Numbered from the stretch's first letter, positions 15,923-38,430 are shown. The stretch: 64,000 nt of DNA from Chloroflexota bacterium (GCA_021813655.1 JAKAJU010000189.1:2229-66228), one strand, 5' to 3'. Program-made: numbers and translations. Notes: generated from the letters alone by a model not told the origin.

Positions 15923-15944
15923 GGCCCGACTCTAGCATCGGGAG

Positions 15945-20102: not shown

Positions 20103-20113
20103 CGGAGGGGATC

Positions 20114-23148: not shown

Positions 23149-24359
23149 CCCATCCAGCTCCCGCCGGCGTCGGGCCCGCACGTTCCGCAGCGGGGGCCCC
23201 AGCCCCGCTCACGCGCCCGGCCCCGGGCACTCTCGTGGCGCGCCGGGCGATCGTGGATGCGGTCCCGCCCGCGACATGGGACGCGCTCGCAAGCCGCAAC
23301 CCGTGGGCAACGCCGTTCGCGCGGTGGGCGTTCCATCGCGCGTGGTGGGACGGGTACGGCGAGAACGCCCACGACGAGACGGTTCTCGTCGTGGACCCGG
23401 CGGCCGAGGCCCGCGGTGACGCCGCCCTCGTAGCGATCGTGCCGCTCATGCACCGCCACGGCGTCGAGCCCACGGACGCGGCCCGCCACACGATGCTCCG
23501 CCGTGAGTCCGACGAGGCGCTCACGCCGATCGCACCGGCGGCGAAGGTCGTGTTCTTCGGCGCCTCCTATCACGCCGACTACGCGACCGTGCTCGCCGAC
23601 CCGTCGGATCTCCCGGCGGTCGCGGAGGCACTCGTCGACCTCCTCGCGTCGGACGCGGGACCGTTCGACGCGCACCCCGATCCGTGGGACATCGTGGACC
23701 TCCGCCGCCTCCGCGATGGAGATCCCGCTCTCGACGCGCTCCGGTCGGCGTTCTCGGTGCGCGCCGCCGCTGCCGGCTGGGACGTGCGCGTCGAGGCCGA
23801 GGACGTGTGCCCGGTGGCGACGCTCCCGGCTGACGCCGACATCGAGGCCTTCCTCGGAACGCTCGGGAAGAAGGAACGCCACGAGATCCGCCGGAAGGTC
23901 CGGCGAGCCGAGGCCGCCGGATCGATCGACCTGGTCCCCTCGGCCGACCCGCTCGCGGACCTCGACGCCTTCGTCGACCTCCACCAGAAGCGGTGGGGTG
24001 CCGAGGGCCTCTTCCCGCCCACGGAGGGCGGCGCGATGAGCCGCCGGTTCTTCGCTCGCCTCATCGAGCTCCTCGCCCCGGACGGGACTCTCGACCTCCG
24101 CTTCCTCGAGATCGACGGTCGACGGATCGCGGCCGGCGTGGGCTTCGCGGACGCATCGTCGGTCTACTACTACAACGCCGGCGTTGATCCCGACGCCCGG
24201 GAGCTCTCGCCGGGCGTCGTCATGGTGGAGCGCTACGTGCGCGGCGCCCTCCAGCGCGGGAAGCGGCGTCTCGACTTCCTCCGAGGTGACGAGGCGTACA
24301 AGTACGAGTGGGGCGCCGTGGACGAGCCGATCCGCCGCCTGCTGGTCGTGCGGACGTAG
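23145..24359 (+). CDS. FemAB-like/BcsL-like GNAT acyltransferase (Acetyltransf_6-type)
   Basis: 404-aa soluble protein with the C-terminal ...YYYNAGVDPDARELSPGVVMVERYVRGALQRGKRRLDFLRGDEAYKYEWGA pattern typical of FemAB-like GNATs. GTG overlaps the upstream stop. Confidence 0.6.
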   Translation: MTHPAPAGVGPARSAAGAPAPLTRPAPGTLVARRAIVDAVPPATWDALASRNPWATPFARWAFHRAWWDGYGENAHDETVLVVDPAAEARGDAALVAIVPLMHRHGVEPTDAARHTMLRRESDEALTPIAPAAKVVFFGASYHADYATVLADPSDLPAVAEALVDLLASDAGPFDAHPDPWDIVDLRRLRDGDPALDALRSAFSVRAAAAGWDVRVEAEDVCPVATLPADADIEAFLGTLGKKERHEIRRKVRRAEAAGSIDLVPSADPLADLDAFVDLHQKRWGAEGLFPPTEGGAMSRRFFARLIELLAPDGTLDLRFLEIDGRRIAAGVGFADASSVYYYNAGVDPDARELSPGVVMVERYVRGALQRGKRRLDFLRGDEAYKYEWGAVDEPIRRLLVVRT

Positions 24360-24362
24360 GCT

Positions 24363-25565
24363 GTGGGCGCTCCTCTCCCCGACGACCCGCGGTACATCAT
24401 GCCTCCGCGCGGGCCGCTCCCCCCGGGCGGGCCCGTCCGCGTCGTGGAGCTCCTCGCGACGGGGACGAACGGCGGCGCCCAGGAGCACGTCTACGGGCTT
24501 CTCTCGCGCCTCGACCGCGAGCGGTACCTCCCGACCGTCGTCTCGCTCTCGCCCGGTTCGGCTGTCCGACGGATCGCCGCTCTCGGCGTCCCCACGCTGG
24601 TGCTCGACGAGCCCGACGACGCGATCGCGGTCGGCGCGCTCGCGGCACACCTGGCCGACGTCCGGCCGGACGTGCTCCACAACCACATGTACCGGGCGGA
24701 GCTCGTGGGGACGCGCGCGGCCATCGCGCTCGGCGAGATCGGCAAGCGACGGCCGTACGTCATCTCCACCGTCCATTCGAGTCGCGTCCGATCGCCCGAG
24801 GACCGGGCCGAGCTGCGTCGCCTCACGCCCTGCATCGACCTCCTGGTGGCGGTCTCGCACGCGATCGTGCAGAAGATCCGCCACGAGGAGCGCGAGGGGT
24901 CGCCGGTCCGGCTCGTCTACAACGGGGTGGACCTCCATCGGTACGACCACCAGGAGCCGTGCTGCACCCTGCGGGAGGAGTACGGCATCGAGGAGGGCGC
25001 GCCGATCGTCGGTGTGGTCGCGCGTCTCGAGCCGGAGAAGGGCCACCGCACGCTGCTCGACGCGTGGCCGCAGGTCCTCCGCAGCGTCCCCACGGCGTGC
25101 CTCATCGTGGTCGGGGAGGGATCCCTGCTCACCGAGCTGGTCTGGCAGGCACGTGAGCTGGGGATCGAGCGGCGCGTGATCTTCACCGGCCGCCGCGACG
25201 ACATTCCCGCCGTGACGGCCGCGCTGGACATCGCCGTTCTGCCCTCGTACCGCGAGGCACAGGGCATGGTGGTCCTGGAGGCGATGGCGCTGTCACGACC
25301 CGTCGTCGCGACGAACGTCGGCGGGATCCCCGAGATGATCGAGGATGGCGTCAGCGGCGTGCTGGTGCCGCCGCACGACCCGGATGCGCTCGCAGCCGCG
25401 ATCGCTCGCCTCCTCCTCGACCATCCGCTCGCGGACACGATCGCCCGCAACGGCCACGACGTGGTCCACGAGCGCTTCTCGATCGAGTTCATGGTGCGCG
25501 CCGTCGAGGACGCGTACGACGAGGGAGCGCGGGCGGCGCGTCTCCGGGACGCGATCGCGGTCTGA
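24363..25565 (+). CDS. GT4-family glycosyltransferase (Glycos_transf_1)
   Basis: The C-terminal GT-B domain carries ...LIVVGEGSL...ERRVIFTGRRDD...AQGMVVLEAMALSRPVVATNVGGIPEMIEDGVSGVLV, which includes the E-x7-E-like signature. Confidence 0.8.
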   Translation: MGAPLPDDPRYIMPPRGPLPPGGPVRVVELLATGTNGGAQEHVYGLLSRLDRERYLPTVVSLSPGSAVRRIAALGVPTLVLDEPDDAIAVGALAAHLADVRPDVLHNHMYRAELVGTRAAIALGEIGKRRPYVISTVHSSRVRSPEDRAELRRLTPCIDLLVAVSHAIVQKIRHEEREGSPVRLVYNGVDLHRYDHQEPCCTLREEYGIEEGAPIVGVVARLEPEKGHRTLLDAWPQVLRSVPTACLIVVGEGSLLTELVWQARELGIERRVIFTGRRDDIPAVTAALDIAVLPSYREAQGMVVLEAMALSRPVVATNVGGIPEMIEDGVSGVLVPPHDPDALAAAIARLLLDHPLADTIARNGHDVVHERFSIEFMVRAVEDAYDEGARAARLRDAIAV

Positions 25566-25614: not shown

Positions 25615-27198
25615 GTGCGCTCTCTCCGGGTCTCGATCGACGCCGTCTGGGTCGCCGCTGCGGTCGCGCTCCCGGCGCTCGGGGCGCTCCTCGCCCCGCT
25701 GACGAGTGAGGACCTCGCCTACCAGGTCCGCACCGGGGACATGATCCTCGCGAGTCGGTCGATCCCGTCGGTCGACACACTCACCTTCTCCGCGGCCGGC
25801 CTGCCGTGGACCGTCCAGCAGTGGGCCGCGGCCGTCGCCCTCGCGGCCGGGTTCGCGCCCGCCGGGTGGACGGGACTCCTGGTCCTGCGGGCCGTCGTCG
25901 TCGCGGCCATCTTCGGCCTGGTCGTCCTCGCCTGTGCCCGGATGGGCGTCCGGAACCGCACCGCTGCTCTTCTCGCGATCGCCTCGTTCGTGGTGGCGCT
26001 CGGTGGCCTCGCGCTGCGGGCACAGCTGTTCGGGGTCCTCTGCTTCGCCGCGATCCTCGCCCTGGTCGCCGGGCGCTCGCGGTCGCCCCGCGCGTTCCTG
26101 GCCGTCCCTCTCGTGGTCCTGGCATGGGCGAACGTGCATGGCACCTTCCCGCTGGGGCTCGCCGCCGTGGCGTGGGTGCTCCTCGAGGACGTGGCAGCCG
26201 CTCGCCTCCCGACCGGCTCGCCTCTCGGCGCTGCGGCCGACGACGGCGCGCAGGCGGCGGATGCGGGGCCAGCGCCAGACCCCCGAGCTCTGTCGAGCGC
26301 GGTTCGCCGCGACATGGCGATCCTCGTGCTCTCGCTCGTCGCGACGTTCGTCACCCCGTTCGGCGCGGGTGTCTGGTCGTACGTCGCGGGCCTCGTCACG
26401 ACGCCGGCCGTCGCGGGCCTGGTGTCGGAGTGGCAGCCCACGACCATCCAGACGTTCGCCGGCGCCACGTTCGTCGCGTCCGTCGTCGGTGTGGCGGTCG
26501 TGCTCGGCGCGCGTCGGCGCGGCGCGACCTGGCCGACGCTCCTCTGGCTCGCAGGCCTCTTCGTGCTTGGCGCGTGGACCGAGCGCGGGATCGTCTGGTG
26601 GGCGGTCGGTGGCGCGGTGGCCATCGCTGGGGTCCTGGGGCGCGCGGAGGCCGCGGGCGGCACCGCGCACGAGGCCGGGGGCTCGACGAGGGGCGCGGGG
26701 AGCATCGGCGCCGGGCCGCGCGGGGGGGCGCGGCCAGTCTCCATCGTCAACGGCGTCCTCGCGCTCGCGATCGCCGCCGCGCCCGCCGTCCTCGCGGTGG
26801 CGATCCTGTCCCGCCCGTCCGACCCGGTCACGGGTCCCGCCGGGGTCCTCGTCGACGCTCCGGCCGGGATCACCGCCGCGGTCCGCGAAGCCGCACCGCC
26901 CGGGACCCGCATCCTCAACGCCCAGCGCTGGGGATCGTGGCTGGAGTGGGCCGTGCCTGACGCGCTCGTCTACACCGACTCGCGGTTCGAGGTGATCCCC
27001 GCCGACGCGTGGCGCGACCAGGTCGCCGTCTCGAGCGGGCGCTTCGACTGGCGGGAGATCATCGACCGGATCGCGCCCGACCTCATCGTCGCGTCACGCC
27101 ACGATCAGCAGGGGCTGCTCGACGCGATCGCGGCCGACCCGGCTTCGGGCTGGCGCCGGGTCTACGCCGACGACGACGGTGTGGTGCTCGTCCGGTGA
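25615..27198 (+). CDS. Polytopic membrane protein with a C-terminal extracytoplasmic domain (unassigned)
   Basis: 527 aa. At least 10 predicted TM helices are followed by a roughly 120-aa soluble tail. It is co-directional with the GT cluster. Confidence 0.5.
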   Translation: MRSLRVSIDAVWVAAAVALPALGALLAPLTSEDLAYQVRTGDMILASRSIPSVDTLTFSAAGLPWTVQQWAAAVALAAGFAPAGWTGLLVLRAVVVAAIFGLVVLACARMGVRNRTAALLAIASFVVALGGLALRAQLFGVLCFAAILALVAGRSRSPRAFLAVPLVVLAWANVHGTFPLGLAAVAWVLLEDVAAARLPTGSPLGAAADDGAQAADAGPAPDPRALSSAVRRDMAILVLSLVATFVTPFGAGVWSYVAGLVTTPAVAGLVSEWQPTTIQTFAGATFVASVVGVAVVLGARRRGATWPTLLWLAGLFVLGAWTERGIVWWAVGGAVAIAGVLGRAEAAGGTAHEAGGSTRGAGSIGAGPRGGARPVSIVNGVLALAIAAAPAVLAVAILSRPSDPVTGPAGVLVDAPAGITAAVREAAPPGTRILNAQRWGSWLEWAVPDALVYTDSRFEVIPADAWRDQVAVSSGRFDWREIIDRIAPDLIVASRHDQQGLLDAIAADPASGWRRVYADDDGVVLVR

Positions 27199-27259: not shown

Positions 27260-28459
27260 ATGAGCGAACCGGACCTCGACGTCGTCGTCCTCGGAGGAGC
27301 CGGGCACGTCGGCTTGCCGTTGAGTCTCGCCTTGGCGGCCAGCGGCCTCCGTGTCGGCATCTACGACACGAATGCCGCCACGCTCGCCCTGGTCTCCGAG
27401 GCGCGGATGCCCTTCCGCGAGAACGGCGCGGAGGAGCTTCTGCGCGACGTCCTCCCCACGGGCAGGCTCGTGTTGTCCGCAGACGCCGCCACCATCCGGC
27501 GCGCGGAGGCGCTCGTCATCGTCATCGGGACCCCCGTGGACGAGTTCCTCGGGCCCTCCATGACGCTCTTCGAGCGGACGGTCGAGCAGATCGCAGTCCA
27601 CGTGCAGGACGGCGCACTCGTCGTGCTCCGGAGCACCGTCTACCCGGGTACGACCGAGTACGTCGCCAACGCGCTCGCCGTCCACCATCGCCGCGTCCAG
27701 GTCGCCTTCTGCCCCGAGCGCGTCGCGGAGGGGCACGCTCTCGAGGAGTTCCGGACCCTGCCGCAGATCATCGGCGCGGACGACCCCGCCGTATCAGACC
27801 GCGCCGCGGCGCTCTTCGCCCGGCTCGGCGGCGAGATCGTCCGAACCACCTCCCGCGAGGCGGAGCTCGCCAAGCTCTTCACGAACACGTGGCGATACAT
27901 GAAGTTCGCGATCGCGAACCAGTTCCTCATGGTCGCGGACCAGGCCGGCCTCGACTACGCGCACATCCTCGAAGCGATCCGCCACGACTACCCGCGCGCC
28001 GCGGACCTCCCCGGCCCGGGCTTCGCCGCCGGGCCGTGCCTCTTCAAGGACACGATGCAACTCGCGGCCTTCACGAGCGACCACTTCCCGATGGGTCAGG
28101 CGGCGATGCAGGTGAACGAGGGCCTGCCCGCCTACATCGTGAGCGCGCTCGAGCGGCGCCACGGGACACTGCGGGGCAGGACGGTCGGGATCCTCGGCAT
28201 GGCGTTCAAGGCCGAGTCGGACGACAATCGGGCGTCGCTCAGCTACAAGCTTCGCAAGTTGCTCGCCTGGGCCGGGGCGCGCGTCCTGTGCACGGACCCG
28301 TACGTGCCCGACCCGCGCCTCGTCCCGCTCGAGGTGGTCCTCGAGGAGTCCGACACGATCATCCTCGGCGTCCCGCATCGCGCGTACCGAGGCCTCGAGA
28401 TCGGCGACCGCGACGTCGTGGACATCTGGGACGCCTTCGGCCGCGGGATCACGCTGTAG
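27260..28459 (+). CDS. UDP-glucose/GDP-mannose dehydrogenase family protein
   Basis: N-terminal Rossmann motif VVVLGGAGHVGLPLSLALAASG, a catalytic Cys in GPGFAAGPCLFKDT, and a C-terminal UDP-binding domain. Confidence 0.85.
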   Translation: MSEPDLDVVVLGGAGHVGLPLSLALAASGLRVGIYDTNAATLALVSEARMPFRENGAEELLRDVLPTGRLVLSADAATIRRAEALVIVIGTPVDEFLGPSMTLFERTVEQIAVHVQDGALVVLRSTVYPGTTEYVANALAVHHRRVQVAFCPERVAEGHALEEFRTLPQIIGADDPAVSDRAAALFARLGGEIVRTTSREAELAKLFTNTWRYMKFAIANQFLMVADQAGLDYAHILEAIRHDYPRAADLPGPGFAAGPCLFKDTMQLAAFTSDHFPMGQAAMQVNEGLPAYIVSALERRHGTLRGRTVGILGMAFKAESDDNRASLSYKLRKLLAWAGARVLCTDPYVPDPRLVPLEVVLEESDTIILGVPHRAYRGLEIGDRDVVDIWDAFGRGITL

Positions 28460-29285
28460 GGTCTCCCGGGGGAGCGTGCGGCGCTTCAGGCGCGGCATCT
28501 GACGGCGCTGGTGAACGGGTCGCCGGAGCGCTCGACCGGCCCGGCCATCGCCACCCGAGAGATGAGGCCGACCGGCGCCGTGTGCGGCCGAACCACGCGA
28601 CGATCGGCACGAGCAGGAGCGGCACGGTGACGAGCGCGTGAGCCGGCCCGAGCGAGGAATTCCGTATCGCCACGACGTAGTCCGCCCAAAGCGCGCCGAA
28701 CGATGCGGAGGCGAGGATCAGCACCGCGAGCGCGATCCACCACCCGCGGGTCCGCACGCCCACCAGCGCGAACGGTGCGAGCGATGGCTTGAGGAGGACG
28801 AAGACGCTCGGCCATCCCCAGACGACGCCGGCCGCGAGCGCGGCCGCGATCCACATGTTCGTGTTCCCGTAGAGGAGCGGCGATATCGTAGGCGGGTACG
28901 CGATCCCGGCGGCCATCAGCGGCCATGTCCACGGAGCCGGTCGGAGTTGCCAGAGCGACCAGGTGAACACGCCGATCGGGACGGCCCACCAGAGCGGCCA
29001 GGGCAGGAAGAGGAAGGGGACGAACAGAAAGAGCGCGTTGGGCGGGTAGAGAACGTCGACGTTCGATTCGACGATGTAGGGCCCGGCCAGCTGGCGAGGC
29101 AGGTAGAACTCGCCGGTGTCCAACCACCGCTCGGCGATCGACCGGAAGTACGCGAGGTCCAACCCGAGCGCGTGCTGGCCGTCGACGTATCTCCAGAGCC
29201 AGACGGATTCGGCGATGCCGACGACGACGAACAGGCCCGTCGTGGTGAGGATCGCGACACGGGCGACGCGGGGGAGACCTGCCAC
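28449..29285 (-). CDS. Short GT87/DUF2029-like membrane protein
   Basis: The ...LAYFRSIAERWLDTGEFYLPR...VDVLYPPNALFLFVPFLFLPWP motif resembles the DUF2029 N-terminal region. The C-terminal 50 aa is low-complexity, so the true extent is uncertain. Confidence 0.45.
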   Translation of the reverse strand: MAGLPRVARVAILTTTGLFVVVGIAESVWLWRYVDGQHALGLDLAYFRSIAERWLDTGEFYLPRQLAGPYIVESNVDVLYPPNALFLFVPFLFLPWPLWWAVPIGVFTWSLWQLRPAPWTWPLMAAGIAYPPTISPLLYGNTNMWIAAALAAGVVWGWPSVFVLLKPSLAPFALVGVRTRGWWIALAVLILASASFGALWADYVVAIRNSSLGPAHALVTVPLLLVPIVAWFGRTRRRSASSLGWRWPGRSSAPATRSPAPSDAAPEAPHAPPGDPTA

Positions 29286-29420
29286 GACCGCAGTCTACGG
29301 ACCGCCCTGCGCGCGCGATGGCCGCACGAGCGCGCTGACCCCCGGGAGCGGTTCGTCCCGGCTGGCCGCGCCCGTCTGCTAGAGTCGGGCGCGATCCGTT
29401 CGCAGGAGGCGCGTGGTCGG

Positions 29421-30446
29421 TTGGTGAGAATCCTTGTCACCGGCGCCGCCGGATTCATCAACGGATATCTCGTTCCCGAGCTGCTCGGGGCGGGGCACGA
29501 GGTCATCGGCCTCGACGACTTCAGCAAGTACGGCCCCGCCCGTCGCAGCTACGACGACCACCCCGCGTACACCTTCGTCGAGGGGGACGCGAAGGACGTC
29601 GCGCTCCTGCGCGAGCTGATCCGCGGCTGCGACCAGGTCGTGGCGGCTGCCGCGATGATCGGCGGCATCAGCTACTTCCACCAGTTCGCGTACGACCTCA
29701 TCGCCGAGAACGAGCGGATCCTCGCCGCGACGTTCGATGCCGCGATCGACGCGCACCTCGACGGCAGCCTCCGGCGGATCGTCGTCCTGAGCTCGTCGAT
29801 GGTCTACGAGTCGGCGACCGTCTTCCCGACGCCGGAGGGGGCGCAGCTCTCGTCGCCGCCGCCGGTCTCGACGTACGGCTTCCAGAAGCTGGCCTCGGAG
29901 TACTTCGCGCGAGGAGCATGGGAGCAGTACCGGCTGCCGTACACGATCCTGCGGCCGTTCAACTGCGTCGGGATCGGCGAGCGGCGTGCCGTCCGCGACA
30001 GCACCGTCATGAGCGGGAACGTGAAGCTCGCGCTCTCGCACGTCGTCCCGGACCTCGCGCTCAAGGTCCTCCGCGGACAGGATCCGCTTCACATCCTCGG
30101 CGACGGGACGCAGGTCCGCTGCTATACGTACGGCGGCGACCTGGCCCGCGGGATCCGGCTCGCGATGGAGTCGGAGGCCGCCGTCAACGAGGACTTCAAC
30201 CTCTCGACGCCCGTGAGCACGACGGTGCTCGACCTCGCGCGCCTCATCTGGCGGACGATCCACGGGCCGGATCGCCGGTTCTCATGGGTCTCCGATCCGC
30301 CGTTCGACCACGACGTCCAGCACCGGGTCCCCGACGTGCGAAAGGCGCGCGAGATCCTCGGCTTCACGGCTGACACGACGCTGGCCGAGATGCTGGACGA
30401 GGTCGTCCCGTGGATCCGCGCCGAGGATGCAGCCGGGGCCATCTGA
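29421..30446 (+). CDS. NAD-dependent epimerase/dehydratase (extended SDR)
   Basis: N-terminal motif ILVTGAAGFINGYLVPELL and the catalytic YxxxK (STYGFQK). A TTG/GTG start lies downstream of an AGGAGG SD. Confidence 0.8.
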   Translation: MVRILVTGAAGFINGYLVPELLGAGHEVIGLDDFSKYGPARRSYDDHPAYTFVEGDAKDVALLRELIRGCDQVVAAAAMIGGISYFHQFAYDLIAENERILAATFDAAIDAHLDGSLRRIVVLSSSMVYESATVFPTPEGAQLSSPPPVSTYGFQKLASEYFARGAWEQYRLPYTILRPFNCVGIGERRAVRDSTVMSGNVKLALSHVVPDLALKVLRGQDPLHILGDGTQVRCYTYGGDLARGIRLAMESEAAVNEDFNLSTPVSTTVLDLARLIWRTIHGPDRRFSWVSDPPFDHDVQHRVPDVRKAREILGFTADTTLAEMLDEVVPWIRAEDAAGAI

Positions 30447-31102
30447 TGACCGACCTTGGCCGTGTCTACCGCGCGCGATTCGACGACGCCGACCATCGCG
30501 CGAAGATGGCGCTGTGGCGTGAGATCGTGCCGTCGATCGCACGGATCGTCCCGATCGACGGCCCGGTGCTCGACCTCGCCTGCGATCGCGGCTACTTCAT
30601 CGCGCACGTGCGCGCTCAGGACCTGTGGGCGTGCGACGTCCGCGACGTCGCCGCCGATCTCCCGGCGGGCGTGCGGTTCGTCCGCGCATCCGGGCTCGCG
30701 CTCGACGACGCCGTTCCCGCGGGCCACTTCGCGACCGTCTTCGCGAGCAACTACCTCGAGCACCTCGCCTCGTCGGACGAGGTGCTCGACCAGATGCGCG
30801 CGGTCGAGCGCGTCCTCCGGCCCGGCGGCCGGTTCGTCGTCCTCCAGCCGAACATCCGGCTCGTCGGGGGTGCCTACTGGGACTTCATCGACCATCACGT
30901 CCCCCTGACGGAGCGCAGTCTCCAGGAGGCGGGCTCCCTCGCCGGGCTGCCGACCGAGCGCACCATCGTCCGCTACCTGCCCTACTCGACGAAGGGACGC
31001 CTGCCCGCCGACCCGCGCCTCGTCCGCGCGTACCTGCGATTCCCACCCGCGTGGCGCATCCTCGGGCGGCAGACGCTCTGGGTGGGACGGAAGCCCGCGT
31101 GA
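30446..31102 (+). CDS. Class I SAM-dependent methyltransferase
   Basis: VLDLACDRGYF (motif I) ... LRPGGRFVV. The ATG overlaps the upstream stop (TGATG). Confidence 0.7.
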   Translation: MTDLGRVYRARFDDADHRAKMALWREIVPSIARIVPIDGPVLDLACDRGYFIAHVRAQDLWACDVRDVAADLPAGVRFVRASGLALDDAVPAGHFATVFASNYLEHLASSDEVLDQMRAVERVLRPGGRFVVLQPNIRLVGGAYWDFIDHHVPLTERSLQEAGSLAGLPTERTIVRYLPYSTKGRLPADPRLVRAYLRFPPAWRILGRQTLWVGRKPA

Positions 31103-31866
31103 CGGACGCGCGCGTGGCGACGGCCGGGCGGCCCGATCGGCCGGATCTCACGATCGTCATGCCGGTCTACGAGGAGGGCGCCGCCGTCGTGCCGGTGCTG
31201 CGCGCGCTGGAGGCCGCGCTCTCCACCCCGCACGAAACGCTCGTCGTGTACGACTTCGACGCGGACACCACCGTGCCTCCGGTCCGCGCACTCGCCGCGG
31301 AGCTTCCGGCGGTGCGGCTCGTGCGCAACGACCTGGGGCGCGGCGTGCTCAACGCGATGAAGGCCGGCTTCGCAGCGGCTCGCGGGACATGGATCCTCGT
31401 CACGATGGCTGACGGATCGGACGACCCCGCGGTCGTGGAGGCGATGGTCGCGCTCGCCCGGGATGGCGCGGACCTCGTCGCCGCCAGCCGGTACATGCAT
31501 GGCGGGCATCAGTACGGCGGCCCGCTCGTCAAGCGGACGCTCTCGCGCGCCGCCGGCCTCTCGCTCCACCGGCTCGCGGGTGTCCCCGTGCACGACGCGA
31601 CGAACAACTTCAAGCTCTACAGTCGTGAGTTCCTCGAGTCCACGACGATCGAGAGCACGGCCGGCTTCGAGCTCGCCACCGAGCTGACCGTGAAGGCAGC
31701 GCTCGCGCGACGCCCGATGGCGGAGGTCCCGGCGACCTGGCGCGACCGCACCGCCGGGCAGAGCCGGTTCCGCCTCGGCGCATGGCTCCCGCACTACCTG
31801 CGCTGGTATCGGGCCGCGTTCATCGGGAGGGCGCGGGCGGCCATTCGGATGCCCAGGTCGGGCTGA
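31099..31866 (+). CDS. GT2-family polyprenol-phosphate sugar synthase-like glycosyltransferase (second copy)
   Basis: LTIVMPVYEEGAAV...ETLVVYDFDADTT...ILVTMADGSDDP. A GTG start overlaps the methyltransferase stop (GTGA). Confidence 0.8.
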   Translation: MTDARVATAGRPDRPDLTIVMPVYEEGAAVVPVLRALEAALSTPHETLVVYDFDADTTVPPVRALAAELPAVRLVRNDLGRGVLNAMKAGFAAARGTWILVTMADGSDDPAVVEAMVALARDGADLVAASRYMHGGHQYGGPLVKRTLSRAAGLSLHRLAGVPVHDATNNFKLYSREFLESTTIESTAGFELATELTVKAALARRPMAEVPATWRDRTAGQSRFRLGAWLPHYLRWYRAAFIGRARAAIRMPRSG

Positions 31867-31882
31867 GTCGCCACCTGCGCGG

Positions 31883-33187
31883 TCAGGCCGAGGGTATGGC
31901 GGGCGTCGTCGTCGCCTCGTCGGACCGGTCAGGCGTCCCGCGGACGAGGATCGCGAGCACGTAGACGGCGACGCACGTGATCGCGAGCGAGCCGACGATC
32001 CCGACCGGACCTCCGAGCGGGACCAGCGAGCCGGGCCCGCCCCCGGGCGGAGCCGCGGCCAGGTAGTTCGCCGACGTCGCGACGACCAGCACGACCCACG
32101 CCACCAGGATCCGCCGGTCGGCGAGGAGGAGCGCGAGGAAGACGACGGCCGGATAGGCGTACCGCTCGTGCATCGCAGTGAGGAGGCAGTAGGCCACGAG
32201 GACGGATGCCGCGAGCGCGAGGTAGAGCGCGTTCCCGGTCGGCCTTCGCCGGAGCGCGACGAAGACGAGGGCGAGGCCGACGGCGGCCGCCGCGTATCCG
32301 AGGAGCCGCGGAGTGAGCGGCCCGACGATCGCGCCGGTGTCCGCGAGGAGCCCGTCGCCTGCTGTGGCGAGCGACTGGAGGATCCACCAGGGGTTCCAGG
32401 CGCGCAGCGAGAGGATCGCGAACGTCTCGCCCTGGTACGCAAACGCCGACCGCAGGTAGGCCACGGGGCCACCCGCAGCAAGGAAGGGGAGCCAGAGCAG
32501 GACGAGGGTCGCCGCGGTCGCGGCCACCGGCAGCGCGGCTCGGCGAACGCCGATGCGCGCGACGGCGTACGCGGCGAGGGGGACGACGAATGGAATCGCC
32601 TGAGGCTTCGTTCCCAGCGCGAGCCCGAGCATCACGCCGGCGAGGGCCCAGCGGCCCCGGAGCGCGAGGACCGCGGCGAGGAGGCCGAAGAGCGTGTAGA
32701 TCGACTCGGACTGCCCCCAGAAGGCGCTGAGGTACCACGTGACCGGCACGAAGGACAGCGCGAGCGCGGACGCGACGGCGATGCGCGGCCGGTCCTTCAG
32801 GGCGTACGCGATGACGAGCGCGATCGCGATGTCCGCGGTCGACGCGGGGATCTTGAGCCAGATCCGGACGGTCGGGTCGGCTGCGTCGGTCGCGGTCTGG
32901 AATGCCGCCTGCAGGTGTCCGATCGCCCAGAAGAGGTAGGCCATGACCGGCCCGAATGAGAGGCCGTGCTCGTAGATGCGATCGAGGGGAACGCCCATTG
33001 CCAGCAGATGCGTCCACAGGGCGAAGACGTCCAGATCGCCCGGCAGGCCCTCCGTCGGCAGGAGCAGGAGGCGGAGGATCGCTGCGCCGGCGAGCCCGAG
33101 GGCGAGCGTGGCGATGAGAGCGGGGGTCCAGGTGCCGCCTCCGGCGGGGGCGACCCCGGCCGTGGATCGCCCGGCCCCGACGCTCAT
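31883..33187 (-). CDS. GT-C membrane glycosyltransferase, GT22 (Alg9/PIG-B)-like
   Basis: Multi-TM protein with an HERYAYP motif near the C-terminus that resembles the H(K/Q)ExRF signature of GT22 mannosyltransferases. The ATG at 33187 lies 4 nt after the PIG-L stop. Confidence 0.55.
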   Translation of the reverse strand: MSVGAGRSTAGVAPAGGGTWTPALIATLALGLAGAAILRLLLLPTEGLPGDLDVFALWTHLLAMGVPLDRIYEHGLSFGPVMAYLFWAIGHLQAAFQTATDAADPTVRIWLKIPASTADIAIALVIAYALKDRPRIAVASALALSFVPVTWYLSAFWGQSESIYTLFGLLAAVLALRGRWALAGVMLGLALGTKPQAIPFVVPLAAYAVARIGVRRAALPVAATAATLVLLWLPFLAAGGPVAYLRSAFAYQGETFAILSLRAWNPWWILQSLATAGDGLLADTGAIVGPLTPRLLGYAAAAVGLALVFVALRRRPTGNALYLALAASVLVAYCLLTAMHERYAYPAVVFLALLLADRRILVAWVVLVVATSANYLAAAPPGGGPGSLVPLGGPVGIVGSLAITCVAVYVLAILVRGTPDRSDEATTTPAIPSA

Positions 33188-33191
33188 GGCG

Positions 33192-34271
33192 TCAGAGGAG
33201 GCTCGTCGCCCAGTACCGTTCCGCGCCGCCCGGCACCGCCCCCAGCCGGCCGATCCGCGCCGCGTGCGCGCGTACTGCATCGGCCATCGGGTCCACGCCG
33301 CCGAAGAGCCGGTCCATCTGGCTCTCGTAGAGCGCGATCCCCCGGATCTTCCGCTCTACGACCTCCGAGATCGCCGCGTACTCGGGCGTGAGCGCCACGT
33401 CCGACGCGATGCCGTCCAGCGCCCCAGCGGGCAGGTCTTCCAGACGTGTGAACTCACCCCAGTACGCGTACGGGAAGTCCTCATAGAAGGCCACGCTCCC
33501 GGCCCACCGAGGACCTGGCATCACCCAGTCCTCGCGCTCGGTCAGGAGCGCGACTCCAACCTGCCGCATGAGCTGGTGGTCGACATGGCCGCCGATCCCG
33601 AGCGGCAGGTACACCTTCTGGGGTTCGAGTCGTGCGATCTCTGTCCGGAGGATCTCGATCGGCGCGCGGTCGTCGGGCCGCGGGGCGCCCAGGAGCTGGT
33701 CGTCGCCCTCGTAGCCCCGGAAGACCGCGTCGGGGAGGTCGAGGAAGATGACGGAGGCCTCGGCGAACGCCGCGTACCGCTCGTCCTCGAGCCGGCGCTC
33801 GGCCATGACGTCGCCGGCGATCCCCGCGTCGACCAGCGCGTCGGTCAGCACCGCGCCCTGCTGGGCGACGTCGTCCGGAGCCGTCCCCGAAGCCTGCGAC
33901 CCGGCGTGGATGTCGGCGCGCCGATACCACGATGCGCGCTGCCAGAACCGACGTGCGCTCGCATCGGCCGCCGTCTGGGTGGCGGCGAGGCGATCGTCTG
34001 CGGCGAGCCACGGAGCGAGCGCGCCGTCGGTGGACGACGGGTAGTCGTTGCCCACGTTGGCGCGGTTGAACGCCTCGGTGTTGGGCCAGACCGCCTTGTT
34101 CCCGAAGCCGAGAGCCTCGCGCTGGTACCCGGTGAGCGTGCCCACTGCGCCCATCCCGGAGAAGACCGTGACGATCGCAACGTTCTGTCCGAGCTCCCGC
34201 AGACCGGCGATGAGCCCGCCGCAGGAGAGGGCGACGTCGTCGGGGTGGGGCGCGACGAAGACGTGGGTCAT
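33192..34271 (-). CDS. PIG-L/LmbE-family N-acetylglucosaminyl deacetylase
   Basis: N-terminal VFVAPHPDDVALSCGG (the HPDD zinc-binding motif of the PIG-L/MshB/LmbE family). Confidence 0.8.
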   Translation of the reverse strand: MTHVFVAPHPDDVALSCGGLIAGLRELGQNVAIVTVFSGMGAVGTLTGYQREALGFGNKAVWPNTEAFNRANVGNDYPSSTDGALAPWLAADDRLAATQTAADASARRFWQRASWYRRADIHAGSQASGTAPDDVAQQGAVLTDALVDAGIAGDVMAERRLEDERYAAFAEASVIFLDLPDAVFRGYEGDDQLLGAPRPDDRAPIEILRTEIARLEPQKVYLPLGIGGHVDHQLMRQVGVALLTEREDWVMPGPRWAGSVAFYEDFPYAYWGEFTRLEDLPAGALDGIASDVALTPEYAAISEVVERKIRGIALYESQMDRLFGGVDPMADAVRAHAARIGRLGAVPGGAERYWATSLL

Positions 34272-34344
34272 GGCCCGGCGAGTATACCGGCGCCTGCAGG
34301 CGTCGAGACCGGGGTCGCAGCGACCGCCCGGCGCGGCCCCGGAC

Positions 34345-34875
34345 TCAGGACGGCGAGGGCGTGGGCGCCGCGCTGGCGGAGACCGCCGGGGAGGCGGACG
34401 TCGCCGGGCTCGCGCTGGCGGACGTCGCCGGGCTCGGCGAGACGATCGGGACGAGCGTCGGCAGCGAGGCCGACGGAGCCGGCGTCACCGGTGCCGGGGT
34501 GACGACGGGCGCCGGGGTCGGCTTCGCGATCGGCGTGAAGAAGCCGCCGTGACCGAAGAGCAGCGCGTAGAGCGCGATGAGGACGAACGCCGCGACGGAG
34601 ATGCCCACGAAGAGCATCGAGATGCGATCGTCCACGTGGCGGCCGACCTCGGATGGCTTCGCGGGGGCGGCCGGCGCCTGGCCTCGGGCCGGAGGCTTCG
34701 CCGGTGCCCTGCCCGGCGCGGGCTCCGTCGGCGCGCCTTCCGCCGCACCGCCCCCACCGCCCGCGGCGGCAACGACGATCGTCGCGGCGGCCACGGCCTC
34801 TTCCCCCGCGAGGCCCTCCTCGTCGACGACCTCGTCGTCCTCTTCGATCGCGCCCTGCGTGTCGTTGTCCGTCAT
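34345..34875 (-). CDS. Hypothetical single-pass membrane protein: acidic N-terminus, Pro/Ala/Thr/Ser-rich C-terminus
   Basis: The sequence runs MTDNDTQGAIEEDDEVVDEEG... then the TM helix MLFVGISVAAFVLIALYALLF... then ...PTPAPVVTPAPVTPAPSASLP.... A 22-bp direct repeat lies in the DNA. Confidence 0.5.
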   Translation of the reverse strand: MTDNDTQGAIEEDDEVVDEEGLAGEEAVAAATIVVAAAGGGGGAAEGAPTEPAPGRAPAKPPARGQAPAAPAKPSEVGRHVDDRISMLFVGISVAAFVLIALYALLFGHGGFFTPIAKPTPAPVVTPAPVTPAPSASLPTLVPIVSPSPATSASASPATSASPAVSASAAPTPSPS

Positions 34876-35025: not shown

Positions 35026-37005
35026 TCAGGCGGCTCGGACCGACCGCGTGAGCAGCCCGGCGAGACCGGTCGACAGCGTGACGAGCCCCGAGATCGCGAG
35101 GACCGTCGAGATCCCGATCCCTGCGGCGAGCAGGCCCGCGACGGCCATCGCGGCGCTCATCGACGCGGTGACCAACGCGAACCGGAAGCTCACGACACGC
35201 CCCATGAGCTCCTGCGGCGTCCGCTCCTGGAAGAGCGTCTGGCTCGGGATCACGTAGACCATGTTCGCGACGCCACAGCCCGCCATGAGGCCGATCGCGA
35301 TGGGCACGTTCCCAGTGAGGCCGAGGGCCGCCGTGCATGCGCCGTACAGCACGAATCCCAGGATCACCATCCTCCCCCGCGCGAAGCGCATCCCCACGAG
35401 GCCGACGAGGAACCCTCCCACGAGGTTGCCGACGCCCACCGCCGTCTCCAGGAGCGCGTACGTCGTGGAGGCGTCGAGCTGGCCCAGCTCGAGGACCTGG
35501 GCTGCATAGACCGGGGTCAGGGCGATCGTCGTGCCCACGCTCACCTGGGCGATCGCCCCCTGGAGCGTGTTGGCGAGCAGGACCGACTCGCTCCTGAGGA
35601 ACCGCCATCCCTCGCGGAGGTCCTCGATGACCCCCCGAACGCCAACGCTCGCTCGCCCGGCCGCACGCACCACGGGCGGGATCGCCATCGTCGCGATCAG
35701 GATCGCGGACGCAACGAACGTGAGCGCGTCGAGCCAGAAGGCGAGGGCGAGCGCCGATCCCAGGAACGCGACGAAGAGACCCGCGATCGGGTACCCCACC
35801 ACGTCTGCGAGCGTCTCGCCGATCCACGTCGCCGAGTTGGCGGTCACGAGCTCGTCGTCCCCGACGATCCGCGGGATCACCGCCGTCCGAGCCGGTCGGA
35901 AGAAGATCGTGATGCTCGTGACGAGGAACACGAGCGGGTAGACGAGGAGGACGTTCACCGTCGCCGCCGCGGGGACGAGGAGGACCGCCGCCGCCCGGAG
36001 GAGGTCGCTCACGACCATCACCTCCCGATGGTCCCAGCGATCCACGAACGCCCCGGCGACGGGTCCGAGGAGGAGACTCGGGAGGAAGGCGGCGACGAAG
36101 ACCGCGCTCACCGCGATGGGGGACCCCGTGAGCCCGAGGACCAGGAAGACGATCGCGATCTGGTTGACCCGATCGCCGAAGAAGCTCACAAGCTGGCCGA
36201 CCCACAGCGCCGAGAAGTCCCCGTTGAGCGCGAGCCGGACGTACGGGTGACGGAGGACGCGCCTCCCGATCGAGGGCGCCGCCCGTTCCGCCGAGACCGA
36301 GGGTCCGCCGCCAAGGCCTCCGAGGAGCCGCGCGCGTGGGAGTGCCGCGGCCTCGCTCATCTCCGCGATCCCCGCGGCGACCGCACCGAGGCGCAGCGTG
36401 GCGCGCCCGCCGGCCGCGGCGGGCGGGGCGGCCGGCGTCGGCGCCTCGTCGAGCCACGCCGGATGGCCCACTACGGCGGCGAAGAGGAACGTGCCCAGGC
36501 CGGCGGCGATGAATACGTCCCCGATGGAGGCGACGTTGCGGACCACCGGGAGCGGGATCGGGATGACGTCGCTCAACGGCCCCAGGTGGAGCAGGAAGGA
36601 CGTGTCGAGCGTCCCCGGCAGCAGGACGTGGAGCGCCGGGCTCACGTCGCCGACCGTGAAGCCGGCCGCGAGGAGGCTCGGCTCCCAGACCGGCATCCGG
36701 CCCGCGTTCCACAGGATGACGATCCCGTTGCTCAGGACGCCCACGAGCGCAAGGAGGAAGCCCGGGTAGCGCCGATTGGCCGCGAGCCCCACGACCAGGA
36801 AGCCGTACGCCACGGTCAGGAGCGCGGTCCGCGCCGGCTCCGGGACCGGCCACCCTGCTCCGACGCCGAACTCGACGATCGCGCGCATGACGAGCGCGCC
36901 GAAGATCATCCAGACGTACGCGATCCGGACCGACGCCAGGCGCCAGATCGAGCCGCCGGCCGCAAGCCCCGCGACCAGGCCCAGGACGATCGCCCCGGCG
37001 AGCAC
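35026..37005 (-). CDS. Fusion protein: N-terminal polytopic membrane domain of unknown function + C-terminal MFS transporter
   Basis: The first roughly 190 aa form 5-6 TM helices (possibly DUF5317-like). From ...LRHPYVRLALNGDFSALWVGQLVSFFGDRVNQ onward the protein is a 12-TM MFS fold. It is a single ORF with no stop between the two parts. Confidence 0.65.
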   Translation of the reverse strand: MLAGAIVLGLVAGLAAGGSIWRLASVRIAYVWMIFGALVMRAIVEFGVGAGWPVPEPARTALLTVAYGFLVVGLAANRRYPGFLLALVGVLSNGIVILWNAGRMPVWEPSLLAAGFTVGDVSPALHVLLPGTLDTSFLLHLGPLSDVIPIPLPVVRNVASIGDVFIAAGLGTFLFAAVVGHPAWLDEAPTPAAPPAAAGGRATLRLGAVAAGIAEMSEAAALPRARLLGGLGGGPSVSAERAAPSIGRRVLRHPYVRLALNGDFSALWVGQLVSFFGDRVNQIAIVFLVLGLTGSPIAVSAVFVAAFLPSLLLGPVAGAFVDRWDHREVMVVSDLLRAAAVLLVPAAATVNVLLVYPLVFLVTSITIFFRPARTAVIPRIVGDDELVTANSATWIGETLADVVGYPIAGLFVAFLGSALALAFWLDALTFVASAILIATMAIPPVVRAAGRASVGVRGVIEDLREGWRFLRSESVLLANTLQGAIAQVSVGTTIALTPVYAAQVLELGQLDASTTYALLETAVGVGNLVGGFLVGLVGMRFARGRMVILGFVLYGACTAALGLTGNVPIAIGLMAGCGVANMVYVIPSQTLFQERTPQELMGRVVSFRFALVTASMSAAMAVAGLLAAGIGISTVLAISGLVTLSTGLAGLLTRSVRAA

Positions 37006-37008
37006 TCT

Positions 37009-38430
37009 CTAGCTGTTCTTGGCGGGTGCCGGCGTGGTGTCGGGACCCCCACCGGAGGTGGCGGTCGCGAGTCGGTCGGCGACGTCGCGGATGAGCGGGA
37101 CGGGGTGGTTCTCGTTCGGGCGTCCCGGGTCCGGCACATCGCGAACCCAGTGCGTCTTCGCGAACGCCTCGACCATCTGCGGGTCGAACTGGATGCCGGC
37201 GAAGCGTCGCAGCTCGGCGAGAGCCTGCGTGTGCGTCAGCGGCGTCATCCGGTACGGGCGGGCGGCCGTCATCGCCTCGTACGCGTCCGCCACCGCGAGG
37301 ATCCGCGCGAGTTCCGGGATCTCCATCCCCACGAGGCGGTCCGGGTAGCCCGACCCGTTGAACCATTCGTGGTGGTGGCGGATGAGGGGCACGACCGGGG
37401 CCAGCTTCGTGACCGGGCCGATGATGTTCGCACCCATGACCGGGTGCGCGTTCATCAGCGCGCGCTCCTCCTTCGTGAGCGTCCCCGGCTTCAGGAGCAC
37501 CGAATCCGGCACGCCGATCTTCCCGACGTCGTGCAGCAGGCCGCCCCACTCGAGAGAGTCGAGATCGGCCGCGGAGACCTTCCGGACGCGCCCGATGTCG
37601 ACAGACATCGTCATCACCCGGCGGCTGTGGTTCGACGTGAACTTGTCGCGGGCGTCGACTGCCTCGGCCAGCACCTCGATCGTCTGCGTGAACATCTCGC
37701 GCATCTCGACGAAGCGGTGATACGCGACGCGGGTGGTGTAGAGCGGGACGGCGAAGAGAAGCGTGGCCCAGGAGAGCACCTGATACATCTGTGCCATGAG
37801 CCACGCGAGCGGGACAAGGAACAGCAGGTTCGTGTACAGCTCAGCGTCTGCGCGGATGATTGTCGACAGTCGGGCGCCCGTCCGGAGAGCGACCACATTG
37901 CTGGCGAGCACCAAGTTCAGCACAAAGAAGACGGATGCTCCGACAGCAGCCGTAGCGATCCCCAGAAGCGCCTGGAGCGGGTCGGCCGATGGCTGGCTCG
38001 GCTGCAAGCCAAAGGCCGATCCGGCACCCCAGATGACCAGTCCTCCGACGATCGCGGGCAGCACCACCCCGGCGTGGTTCGATAGCGTCCCGTACCACGG
38101 GATGTCGCCGCGGAGTTCCCGCATCTCCGTCGCGCCGATGAGCGCGACCCACCCAGCCGCGGTGGGTCCGCCAAGAATCATGGCAACAACCACGGGGGCC
38201 GTGGCTACGTTCACCCGCGTCCCACTGGCCAGCTGAACTGGCATCGCAGATAGCAGCAGAGTCACAAACGTCCAGAACGCGACGCCTGCGATGAGCCCAG
38301 CCTGAGCCGACAGATCGATGCCGCTGGGCGCGATCCATTCCTGAATAGGAATCGTGAGGCTCGTGGCTGCCAGCGCGACGGCGCTGACGCCCACGAGCCC
38401 CGAGATGTAGGCCTTGAGGGGTGTCGTCAC
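37009..38430 (-). CDS. 7TM-receptor HD-GYP domain cyclic-di-GMP phosphodiesterase
   Basis: The N-terminal 7TM region is followed by HDVGKIGVPDSVLLKPG...HHEWFNGSGYPDRL, which gives the HD and GYP signatures. Confidence 0.85.
   Translation of the reverse strand: MTTPLKAYISGLVGVSAVALAATSLTIPIQEWIAPSGIDLSAQAGLIAGVAFWTFVTLLLSAMPVQLASGTRVNVATAPVVVAMILGGPTAAGWVALIGATEMRELRGDIPWYGTLSNHAGVVLPAIVGGLVIWGAGSAFGLQPSQPSADPLQALLGIATAAVGASVFFVLNLVLASNVVALRTGARLSTIIRADAELYTNLLFLVPLAWLMAQMYQVLSWATLLFAVPLYTTRVAYHRFVEMREMFTQTIEVLAEAVDARDKFTSNHSRRVMTMSVDIGRVRKVSAADLDSLEWGGLLHDVGKIGVPDSVLLKPGTLTKEERALMNAHPVMGANIIGPVTKLAPVVPLIRHHHEWFNGSGYPDRLVGMEIPELARILAVADAYEAMTAARPYRMTPLTHTQALAELRRFAGIQFDPQMVEAFAKTHWVRDVPDPGRPNENHPVPLIRDVADRLATATSGGGPDTTPAPAKNS

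Follow-up and report, generated by a model that had tools for sequence, protein, structure and literature searches.

A PIG-L-family de-N-acetylase and an optional GT-C glycosyltransferase share a recurrent junction in a variable envelope-glycan island of Chloroflexota

The window analysed here is a stretch of 64,000 nucleotides (nt) from a Chloroflexota bacterium (GCA_021813655.1, JAKAJU010000189.1:2229-66228). In it, a gene for a de-N-acetylase of the PIG-L/LmbE family is followed, after a spacer of 4 nt, by a gene for a membrane glycosyltransferase of the GT-C fold. The first-pass annotation of this DNA had taken the two genes for a coupled unit analogous to glycosylphosphatidylinositol (GPI) synthesis, in which a glucosamine (GlcN) lipid would be made by the deacetylase and extended by a GT22-like mannosyltransferase. 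We are fairly confident that the pair is a real and recurrent junction in a variable glycan island, and that it belongs to an ordinary envelope-glycan locus in which no GPI-like two-enzyme logic is apparent. Our results are best accommodated by two layers within the same locus, that is, an optional decoration cassette containing the GT-C and a core pathway containing the PIG-L protein. As a whole we put this layered reading forward tentatively, with a confidence that stays somewhat short of even. Its parts differ in strength. A role of the GT-C as outer-face transferase in an optional cassette of the three-component type is well supported, and the PIG-L protein probably serves the conserved core of the same locus.

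The PIG-L gene (33192 to 34271, minus strand) encodes a protein of 359 amino acids (aa), with the N-terminus MTHVFVAPHPDDVALSCGG (its start is also given as MTHVFVAPHPDD), and the GT-C gene (31883 to 33187, minus strand) one of 434 aa. Direct reading of the sequence gives the junction as TGA-CGCC-ATG, with the spacer CGCC at 33188 to 33191 on the minus strand and the GT-C ATG at 33187. The arrangement first described, with the PIG-L gene ending 4 nt before the GT-C start codon, is thus exact, and public gene calls on the same contig list the identical pair of products (359 and 434 aa). The window also has a match in a metagenome-assembled genome (GCA_027347925.1). The two genes are very probably co-transcribed. 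By eye, no GGAGG-like Shine-Dalgarno sequence was seen in the 20 nt ahead of the GT-C ATG, a feature that would fit translational coupling and does not prove it. Scans of the 31.5-35.3 kb region for consensus sigma-70 promoters and intrinsic terminators found none, a result that is uninformative at the 72% G+C of the window. Just ahead of the PIG-L gene (34272-34300, minus strand), 9 nt from its ATG, there is a TATACT hexamer, which may be a -10 box with a very short leader.

The evidence for two layers comes from comparative genomics. The PIG-L-anchored set comprised 80 species-level genomes, viewed over 8 kb on either side of the gene; 69 of these loci had enough downstream sequence and 53 had at least 7.5 kb of it. 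The GT-C-anchored set comprised 80 metagenome loci, 52 of which were scored for PIG-L upstream and 55 for a GT2 gene downstream. A GT-C homologue lies downstream of PIG-L on the same strand in 38 of the 69 loci and is directly adjacent in 32, at an estimated spacing of -27 to +97 nt. Seen from the GT-C, PIG-L is upstream in 40 of 52 loci (77%) and adjacent in 30, and a GT2 gene is downstream in 43 of 55, including all 12 loci with long flanks. When the 53 loci were sorted by content, 27 had both GT-C and GT2 (24 of them also with a short-chain dehydrogenase/reductase, SDR), two had GT-C alone, three had GT2 and SDR without GT-C, and 21 had none of these genes. GT2 is therefore present in 27 of the 29 loci with GT-C and in 3 of the 24 without it (Fisher p = 2e-9). 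The order of the cassette-less loci is collapsed to PIG-L, a variable GT-C, GT4, GNAT, GT-C, GT87, and a second GT2. On the basis of this collapsed order and of the co-variation, we infer that GT-C, GT2, SDR, and dehydrogenase, with or without a methyltransferase, form one optional cassette, located at the point of convergence between the operons of PIG-L and GT4.

The PIG-L gene itself is indifferent to the presence of this cassette. It is kept in the 21 of 53 species (about 40%) that lack GT-C, GT2, and SDR within 8 kb, and its mean pairwise identity is 0.710 among cassette-positive loci, 0.699 among cassette-negative loci, and 0.700 between the two groups. The notion of a dedicated two-step PIG-L/GT-C unit is not borne out, because PIG-L remains intact in these 21 species and none of seven shorter PIG-L relatives, described below, stands beside a GT-C. 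The genes upstream of PIG-L are conserved (HD-GYP in 46 of 52 loci, DUF5317-MFS in 45 of 52), and those after it vary in family and strand. In two cases (L006/L008 and L034/L043), a single metagenome-assembled genome holds two contigs with near-identical PIG-L loci, which could reflect a strain mixture or a real duplication.

In the layered reading, a nucleotide sugar would be tailored in the cytoplasm by the dehydrogenase and the 4-epimerase-like SDR, joined in some species by the methyltransferase. The GT2 would load this sugar onto a polyprenyl-monophosphate carrier at the cytoplasmic side, and the GT-C would move one sugar from the carrier to a surface glycan, lipid, or protein at the outer face of the membrane, with D51 acting as the base and K194 together with H340/R342 holding the leaving phosphate. 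The PIG-L protein would be a cytoplasmic zinc de-N-acetylase, which most likely takes the acetyl group off an N-acetylglucosamine (GlcNAc) that the BshA/MshA-like GT4 attaches to a membrane-bound precursor. The FemAB-like GNAT would (amino)acylate the exposed amine, or the amine would stay free. After export, GT-C enzymes encoded in the locus would extend the product, and the 434-aa protein would be one of these extenders, an optional one. On this view, the 4-nt junction would represent a cassette transferase riding on the PIG-L transcript rather than a dedicated two-enzyme step. We propose the GT4-PIG-L-GNAT logic because the GT4 resembles BshA and MshA, whose products are substrates of PIG-L-family enzymes, and because the antibiotic deacetylases Orf2* and Dbv21 act just before an N-acyltransferase and four of the seven short PIG-L forms directly precede a FemAB gene.

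Several points weigh against this proposal. The suggested link of PIG-L with the GT4 and the GNAT builds on co-location over 1-8 kb and on analogy, and the relationship between the GNAT of the window and the FemAB proteins that accompany the short forms is distant (E = 2e-6). PIG-L always stands at the edge of the island, perhaps through inherited synteny alone, because the genes upstream of it are functionally unrelated. Each genome was viewed over 8 kb to either side, and the cassette could lie elsewhere in the genomes that we call cassette-less. Finally, the 4-nt junction and the occurrence of PIG-L upstream of 77% of the GT-C homologues fit a direct partnership equally well.

The first-pass annotation had recognised a PIG-L-family protein from its HPDD motif, and our data confirm it. 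Pfam PF02585 scores 56.3 bits against a cut-off of 28.2, and H9, D11, D12, H229, D231, and H232 are present in every one of 81 sequences. Work on the LmbE superfamily (PMC4101496) defines it by an HXD1D2 + H site, in which two His residues and D2 are metal ligands and D1 is the general base; here H9-P-D11-D12 and H232, within HVDH (229-232), make up this site. The protein has no signal peptide or transmembrane segment, which indicates a cytoplasmic location. It belongs to a long form, in which about 100 additional aa (approximately residues 58-150) separate the HPDD strand from the DLPD motif; this insert contains conserved Trp/Arg-rich segments (RFWQRxSWYRRA). Because of this lineage-specific insert, the spacer between the metal ligands D12 and H232 reaches 220 residues, against 97-148 in characterised LmbE members (PMC4101496). 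This outlying value marks the protein as a variant of the LmbE superfamily, not as a non-member.

The structural comparisons place the long form close to antibiotic deacetylases. In the predicted model the core has a pLDDT of about 75-95 and the insert falls below 50, and the top 42 Foldseek matches are all proteins of the LmbE fold (Rossmann-like alpha/beta). The nearest solved relatives are the teicoplanin and A40926 deacetylases Orf2* and Dbv21 (profile 7e-07; fold E about 1e-11, target TM-score [TMt] 0.70-0.80), which share the C-terminal EDxPYA segment and act between a GlcNAc transferase and an N-acyltransferase. They too have an extra capping insertion over the active site (PMC4101496). 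The sequence identity to them is low (about 18-19%), the insert of the window protein is much larger, and its context is an envelope glycan rather than antibiotic synthesis. Diacetylchitobiose deacetylases, TT1542, and BshB come next, and the MshB fold ranks 32nd or lower (TMt about 0.42). The equivalog models score far below their cut-offs: 15.9 bits against 224.35 for MshB (TIGR03445), 34.7 against 182.5 for BshB1 (TIGR04001), and 15.6 against 195.25 for BshB2 (TIGR04000), with the N-terminal 50 residues alone matched. For these reasons, together with the low rank of the MshB fold, we reject an MshB, Mca, or BshB identity; the protein does not cluster tightly with MshB or Mca, and the separation from MshB drawn in the first-pass annotation stands. 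The MshA/MshB and BshA/BshB pathways nevertheless resemble the locus in that its GT4 is nearest to BshA and MshA and its PIG-L protein shares the HXDD+H site, although the PIG-L protein fails the MshB, BshB1, and BshB2 models and no Cys ligase was seen.

When 1.84 billion cluster representatives were searched exhaustively, about 75 matched at E <= 1e-30, most of them fragments, and the long form therefore seems essentially confined to this lineage (Candidatus Limnocylindria). All of the closest relatives of the PIG-L protein and of the GT-C come from genomes of Chloroflexota, many of which bear the label Candidatus Limnocylindrales or Limnocylindria. Two candidates for distant long forms at 44% identity (P0266 and P0272) were discarded as frameshifted assemblies of the same PIG-L family.

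The next-nearest relatives are short forms of 250-290 aa that lack the insert and are common in Chloroflexales. We inspected the contexts of seven of them. In four, genes for a HEAT-repeat protein, PIG-L, and FemAB/Acetyltransf_6 follow one another, and the FemAB start codon either overlaps the PIG-L stop or is at most 13 nt away from it; in three of these four a Mur ligase gene is next. A fifth locus reads polyprenyl synthase, Mur ligase, PIG-L, and the remaining two lie amid glycoside hydrolase and amino-sugar genes, one of them with GH3/SIS/ROK recycling genes. None of the seven is directly beside a gene for a GT-C or for a GT2/polyprenol-phosphate synthase. The Acetyltransf_6 protein of the window and the FemAB protein after the Oscillochloris short-form PIG-L are 28% identical over 152 aa; we rejected orthology between the window protein and the short-form FemAB partners, since the similarity is at the superfamily level only. 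As a separate observation, the Chloroflexales short-form operon (Oscillochloris, Viridilinea, and metagenome contigs) runs from ROK through a protein of about 700 aa without family match, the HEAT-repeat protein, PIG-L, and FemAB/Acetyltransf_6 to, usually, a Mur ligase (L164:9001-12541, L166:7001-10530, L167:7001-8920, L168:6798-10400). Its content suggests an undescribed pathway of deacetylation followed by aminoacylation, possibly on a peptidoglycan precursor.

These contexts bear on the view that PIG-L and the glycan genes share no pathway at all. In that case, PIG-L would have a housekeeping function in the metabolism of amino sugars, either soluble ones or those of the cell wall, and would simply mark a conserved border next to which variable glycan genes insert; its role could be in a GlcN conjugate of the low-molecular-weight thiol type, in the editing of peptidoglycan precursors, or in GlcNAc recycling. 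The association of short forms with Mur ligase and FemAB, or with GH3/SIS/ROK genes, speaks for it, as do the unrelated housekeeping genes kept in fixed order upstream (HD-GYP and MFS at the frequencies given above, and Pcm in many species) and the wide variation in family and strand downstream. We regard it as improbable, however, since glycan genes flank PIG-L in nearly all 69 loci, a same-strand gene for a membrane glycosyltransferase-like protein comes next in about two thirds of them, and the BshB and MshB models score so low. The upstream synteny itself gives no functional clue, the HD-GYP protein, the DUF5317-MFS protein, the Pro/Thr-rich protein, and the protein-isoaspartate methyltransferase being mutually unrelated.

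The identification of the second protein as a GT-C is sound. Its AlphaFold (AF2) model is a confident multi-helix GT-C fold (pLDDT 89.7, pTM 0.90), and the top PDB fold matches in Foldseek are all GT-C enzymes: yeast ALG6 (query TM-score [TMq] 0.70), Candida Gpi14/PIG-M as the second best, PimE, ALG3, and the GT-C-like PIG-U. TM-scores against ALG6, Gpi14, PimE, and ALG3 range from 0.57 to 0.70. By model and profile, the closest families are those of ALG6 (GT57), Gpi14/PIG-M (GT50), PimE (GT87), and ALG3 (GT58). The family profile has ALG6 as its sole meaningful match among PDB sequences (E = 0.0014), in an alignment that pairs the GDLD turn with YGDFE of ALG6. In Pfam, the window protein has only sub-threshold matches, to ALG3, PMT_2, and GT87. 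When each of 57 homologues was scanned singly at E <= 0.01, GT87 (PF09594) was found in 28 (best 8.4e-06; the window protein reaches 17.5-18 bits against a gathering score of 25) and Alg6_Alg8 (GT57, PF03155) in 24 (best 1.5e-09; the window protein has no match).

The GT22-like label does not hold. None of the 57 homologues matches Pfam GT22 at E <= 0.01, and the folds of the GT22 enzymes ALG9 (18th, E = 0.026, TMq 0.48) and ALG12 (38th, E = 0.41) rank behind ALG6, Gpi14, PimE, and ALG3; accordingly, the GT22 assignment was rejected. The HERY motif on which the label was built requires a more careful account. In an alignment of the 57 homologues, which are 46-70% identical to the window protein (mean column identity 54%), the invariant positions are D51 in the GDLD turn just past the first transmembrane helix (TM1), K112, D119, Q159, K194-P-Q, R262-A-W-N, and H340-E-R-Y343. 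D51 opens the helix at 49-63 in the first outer loop, with D53 close by, and K194 lies within TKPQ. HERY occupies residues 340-343 (LLTAMHERYAYP) and is invariant in 57 of 57 homologues; it is very probably functional and not a coincidence of sequence.

Published structures allow these residues to be given candidate roles. The catalytic base stands at the start of the first outer-loop helix in PimE (D58), ALG3 (D71), and ALG9 (D82) (PMC12041525, PMC13503287). In PimE, K195 before TM6 and H322 after TM9 contact the donor phosphate (PMC12041525), and the contacts in the loop after TM9 are H371 in ALG3, R370 in ALG9, and R312 in ALG12 (PMC13503287). HERY follows the helix at 318-335 of the model, and thereby matches the phosphate-contact place of ALG3, ALG9, ALG12, and PimE by helix order, not by superposition. 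A profile of the 94-residue HERY region found no match among PDB sequences even at E <= 10, and the equivalence therefore rests on helix order and the published contacts. The GT22 signature H(K/Q)ExRF, which we take to contain the R370 and R312 contacts of ALG9 and ALG12, would fall in the same place. The resemblance seen in the first-pass annotation is thus reasonable as regards position, but the feature is common to several GT-C families and not diagnostic of GT22, because ALG3 (H371) and PimE (H322) also have a phosphate-binding His there. In the light of the model, D51 is the likely catalytic Asp, and K194 and H340-E-R-Y343 are the likely donor-phosphate contacts. The protein thus shares its fold with PimE (GT87) and ALG6 (GT57), and D51, K194, and H340 would correspond to D58, K195, and H322 of PimE, although it stays below the Pfam thresholds of both families (18 bits against 25 for GT87; no Alg6_Alg8 match).

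The cassette genes inform the nature of the donor. The GT-C gene lies tail to tail with an operon ending in SDR, methyltransferase, and GT2, with stop codons 16 nt apart. The GT2 (31099 to 31866, plus strand, 255 aa) is a polyprenol-monophosphate sugar synthase of the DPM1/PpgS/ArnC class according to Pfam (Glycos_transf_2), NCBIfam, and PDB searches. Its best NCBIfam matches are a Dol-P hexose transferase, PgfS, AglJ, PpgS, and ArnC, and its best PDB matches are the Dol-P-Man synthase 5mlz (1.5e-16) and then ArnC and GtrB. Upstream of it are a methyltransferase dependent on S-adenosylmethionine (30446 to 31102, plus strand, 218 aa; Pfam Methyltransf_23/11), found in a subset of cassettes, and the SDR (29421 to 30446, plus strand, 341 aa; Pfam Epimerase), a nucleotide-sugar epimerase/dehydratase that is 76-88% identical across species. 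In the PDB, the SDR is closest to 8vr2 (an unnamed NAD-dependent epimerase/dehydratase), followed by 6wjb/6wj9, 4zrm (UDP-glucose 4-epimerase), MoeE5, and UDP-glucuronate decarboxylase. The search output places 6wjb/6wj9 in the epimerase/dehydratase family only; we presume that they are the UDP-GlcNAc 4-epimerase PelX. Judged by these relatives, the SDR is most likely a 4-epimerase. The nucleotide-sugar 6-dehydrogenase (27260 to 28459, plus strand) scores 264.7 bits with TIGR03026, above the cut-off, and its best PDB match is the UDP-ManNAcA dehydrogenase 4r16, with Cap5O and 3g79 also high, which points to the group of UDP-ManNAc and UDP-N-acetylhexosamine (UDP-HexNAc) dehydrogenases. The name mannosyltransferase is consequently not supported, as the co-varying GT2 sits with a dehydrogenase of the UDP-HexNAc type and a 4-epimerase-like SDR. 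From homology, an N-acetylated hexosamine or hexosaminuronic acid appears at least as likely a donor sugar as mannose.

The cassette resembles the three-component extracytoplasmic systems of GT2, flippase, and GT-C, such as GtrA/B/C (PMC11127046), in that a GT2 of the DPM1/ArnC/GtrB class co-varies with a GT-C and the module is optional. It differs in adding its own dehydrogenase, SDR, and sometimes methyltransferase, in a GT-C below every curated family threshold, and in the flippase: no GtrA-like protein was recognised among the scanned products of the 12.6-38.4 kb region, and another transporter could serve. A 278-aa polytopic membrane protein within the cassette region (28449 to 29285, minus strand) weakly resembles GT87, not GtrA; it has no Pfam or NCBIfam match, is 28% identical over 71 aa to the GT87-like open reading frame (ORF) of the window, and has a homologue between PIG-L and GT-C in some species.

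The same genes can be arranged into a scheme of donor-side deacetylation. The dehydrogenase and SDR would make a UDP-HexNAc or its uronic acid, the cassette GT2 would load it onto polyprenyl phosphate, and PIG-L, in the role of ArnD or NaxD, would deacetylate this polyprenyl-linked sugar at the cytoplasmic face; after flipping, the GT-C would transfer the amino sugar to a surface polymer. The locus is indeed like ArnC/ArnD/ArnT, FlmF2/NaxD/FlmK, and the mycobacterial PpgS/Rv3779 system in holding a dehydrogenase or epimerase, a GT2 loader, a deacylase-type enzyme, and a GT-C in one block, with the five activities contiguous from 27260 to 34271. The nearest relatives of the dehydrogenase, the presumed PelX entries 6wj9/6wjb close to the SDR, the presence of PpgS and ArnC among the GT2 matches, the 4-nt junction, and the 40 of 52 GT-C homologues preceded by PIG-L agree with it, and the RFWQRxSWYRRA segment of the insert could be a membrane-interface element. 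A step of this kind also had no identified deacetylase in 2022 in the mycobacterial galactosamine pathway, which comprises an epimerase, PpgS, and the GT-C Rv3779 (PMC9671496). If PIG-L did deacetylate a polyprenyl-phosphate HexNAc, it would represent a new enzyme class and a candidate for that step. However, the deacylase candidate here is of the PIG-L/LmbE (CE14) type and shows no co-variation with the other genes of the block, being intact and equally conserved in the 21 species without GT-C, GT2, and SDR nearby, and none of the seven short forms is directly beside a GT2 or a GT-C. ArnD and NaxD are of another type than PIG-L/LmbE, and we know of no PIG-L-family enzyme that acts on a polyprenyl-phosphate sugar. 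We consider donor-side deacetylation rather unlikely, but the main rival of the layered reading.

The layered reading draws its core pathway from the genes on the far side of the cassette. The GT4 (24363 to 25565, plus strand) is a retaining glycosyltransferase (Pfam Glycos_transf_1), 62-89% identical across species. It matches the deposited group 1 glycosyltransferases 2jjm/3mbo (5e-31), presumably Bacillus anthracis BshA, the predicted glycosyltransferase 3c4q (2e-23), which we take to be MshA, and 5d00, the N-acetyl-alpha-D-glucosaminyl L-malate synthase BshA, followed by PimB' and PimA; its closest solved relatives would thus be the UDP-GlcNAc-using BshA and MshA. The stop codon of the FemAB-like GNAT of 404 aa (23145 to 24359, plus strand; Acetyltransf_6, Pfam PF13480, 1.6e-30) lies 3 nt ahead of the GT4 start codon.

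With a GT4 of the PIG-A/PimA family at hand, the locus contains the same enzyme classes as eukaryotic GPI assembly (PIG-A as GT4, PIG-L, PIG-M/V/B as GT-C, and DPM1). Read in this way, PIG-L would de-N-acetylate a GlcNAc-lipid such as GlcNAc-phosphatidylinositol, and a GT22-like GT-C would mannosylate the resulting GlcN-lipid from polyprenol-phosphate mannose. In favour of this reading, two of the four top-ranking fold matches for the GT-C are Gpi14/PIG-M and PimE, a Dol-P-Man synthase heads the solved matches of the GT2, and the PIG-L protein is cytoplasmic like its eukaryotic namesake. Nevertheless, GT22 membership was not found, the GT-C beside PIG-L is optional and PIG-L is not, and the sugar-nucleotide genes accompanying the GT2 speak for a sugar other than mannose. 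Moreover, no phosphatidylinositol synthase, inositol-phosphate synthase, ethanolamine-phosphate transferase, or transamidase was matched among the genes scanned between 12.6 and 38.4 kb. This GPI-like pathway is in our judgement very unlikely. Equally slight is the chance that the locus builds a GlcN-containing bacterial glycolipid anchor, in which the GT4 would place GlcNAc on a lipid, the long-form PIG-L would deacetylate it at the cytoplasmic face, and the GT-C enzymes, including the 434-aa one, would extend it outside from polyprenol-phosphate sugars. If true, such an anchor would be an independent bacterial counterpart of GPI or of archaeal GlcN-inositol-lipid synthesis.

The pair itself is unsurprising as operon packaging within a variable glycan island. 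The locus is of wider relevance, as Candidatus Limnocylindria is an abundant and uncultured class of Chloroflexota whose cell envelope is chemically uncharacterised. With its roughly nine GT-C enzymes, two polyprenol-phosphate sugar synthases, GT4, FemAB-like protein, and class-specific PIG-L, it is probably the main blueprint for the surface glycoconjugates of this class. In addition, a GT-C family that stays below curated thresholds and yet keeps the Asp/Lys/His layout of PimE and ALG3 offers a clean new family for CAZy-type classification.

Regarding the wider neighbourhood, the locus spans about 22 kb (approximately 12.6-34.3 kb), is dense in envelope-glycan genes, and has the PIG-L/GT-C pair at one end. 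It contains at least nine GT-C-like membrane proteins, two GT2 of the DPM1/ArnC class, the GT4, the FemAB-like Acetyltransf_6 protein, the nucleotide-sugar dehydrogenase, the SDR, and the methyltransferase. A polytopic membrane protein of 527 aa between the GT4 and the dehydrogenase (25615 to 27198, plus strand) has no family match, is syntenic in many loci, and is probably a GT-C of the conserved backbone. The second DPM1/ArnC-class GT2 (about 16960-17728, plus strand) is followed by a GT87-type gene (about 17.7-18.86 kb) and a GT-C-like gene (about 18870-20102). Ahead of it, a 196-aa ORF (16284-16874, plus strand) matches only positions 46-213 of the 237 in the GT87 model and is immediately preceded by another short ORF (15936-16241); the 196-aa ORF is possibly a GT87 gene that has been truncated or frameshifted. 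A further gene of the glycan operon encodes a FAD-dependent protein of the amine-oxidase fold (20027-21454, plus strand; NCBIfam PRK07233, named 'hypothetical protein', 381 bits against 252), and the stop of this gene and the start of a PMT_2-type GT-C gene overlap.

On the other side of the pair, 73 nt upstream of PIG-L, a gene on the minus strand (34345 to 34875) encodes a protein of 176 aa with a single transmembrane segment and a C-terminal tail rich in Pro, Thr, Ser, and Ala. In 42 of 54 loci, an equivalent ORF, with one transmembrane segment and a tail of at least 60% of these four residues, is found between PIG-L and the MFS gene. It is possible that the 176-aa protein is O-glycosylated by the GT-C enzymes encoded nearby. 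A gene for a protein-L-isoaspartate O-methyltransferase (Pcm) stands just before PIG-L in many species and is absent from that place in the window. Further upstream, at 35026-38430 on the minus strand, the genes for the HD-GYP protein, with a membrane N-terminal half, and for the DUF5317-MFS fusion lie 3 nt apart, and this pair is found upstream of PIG-L in about 88% of loci.

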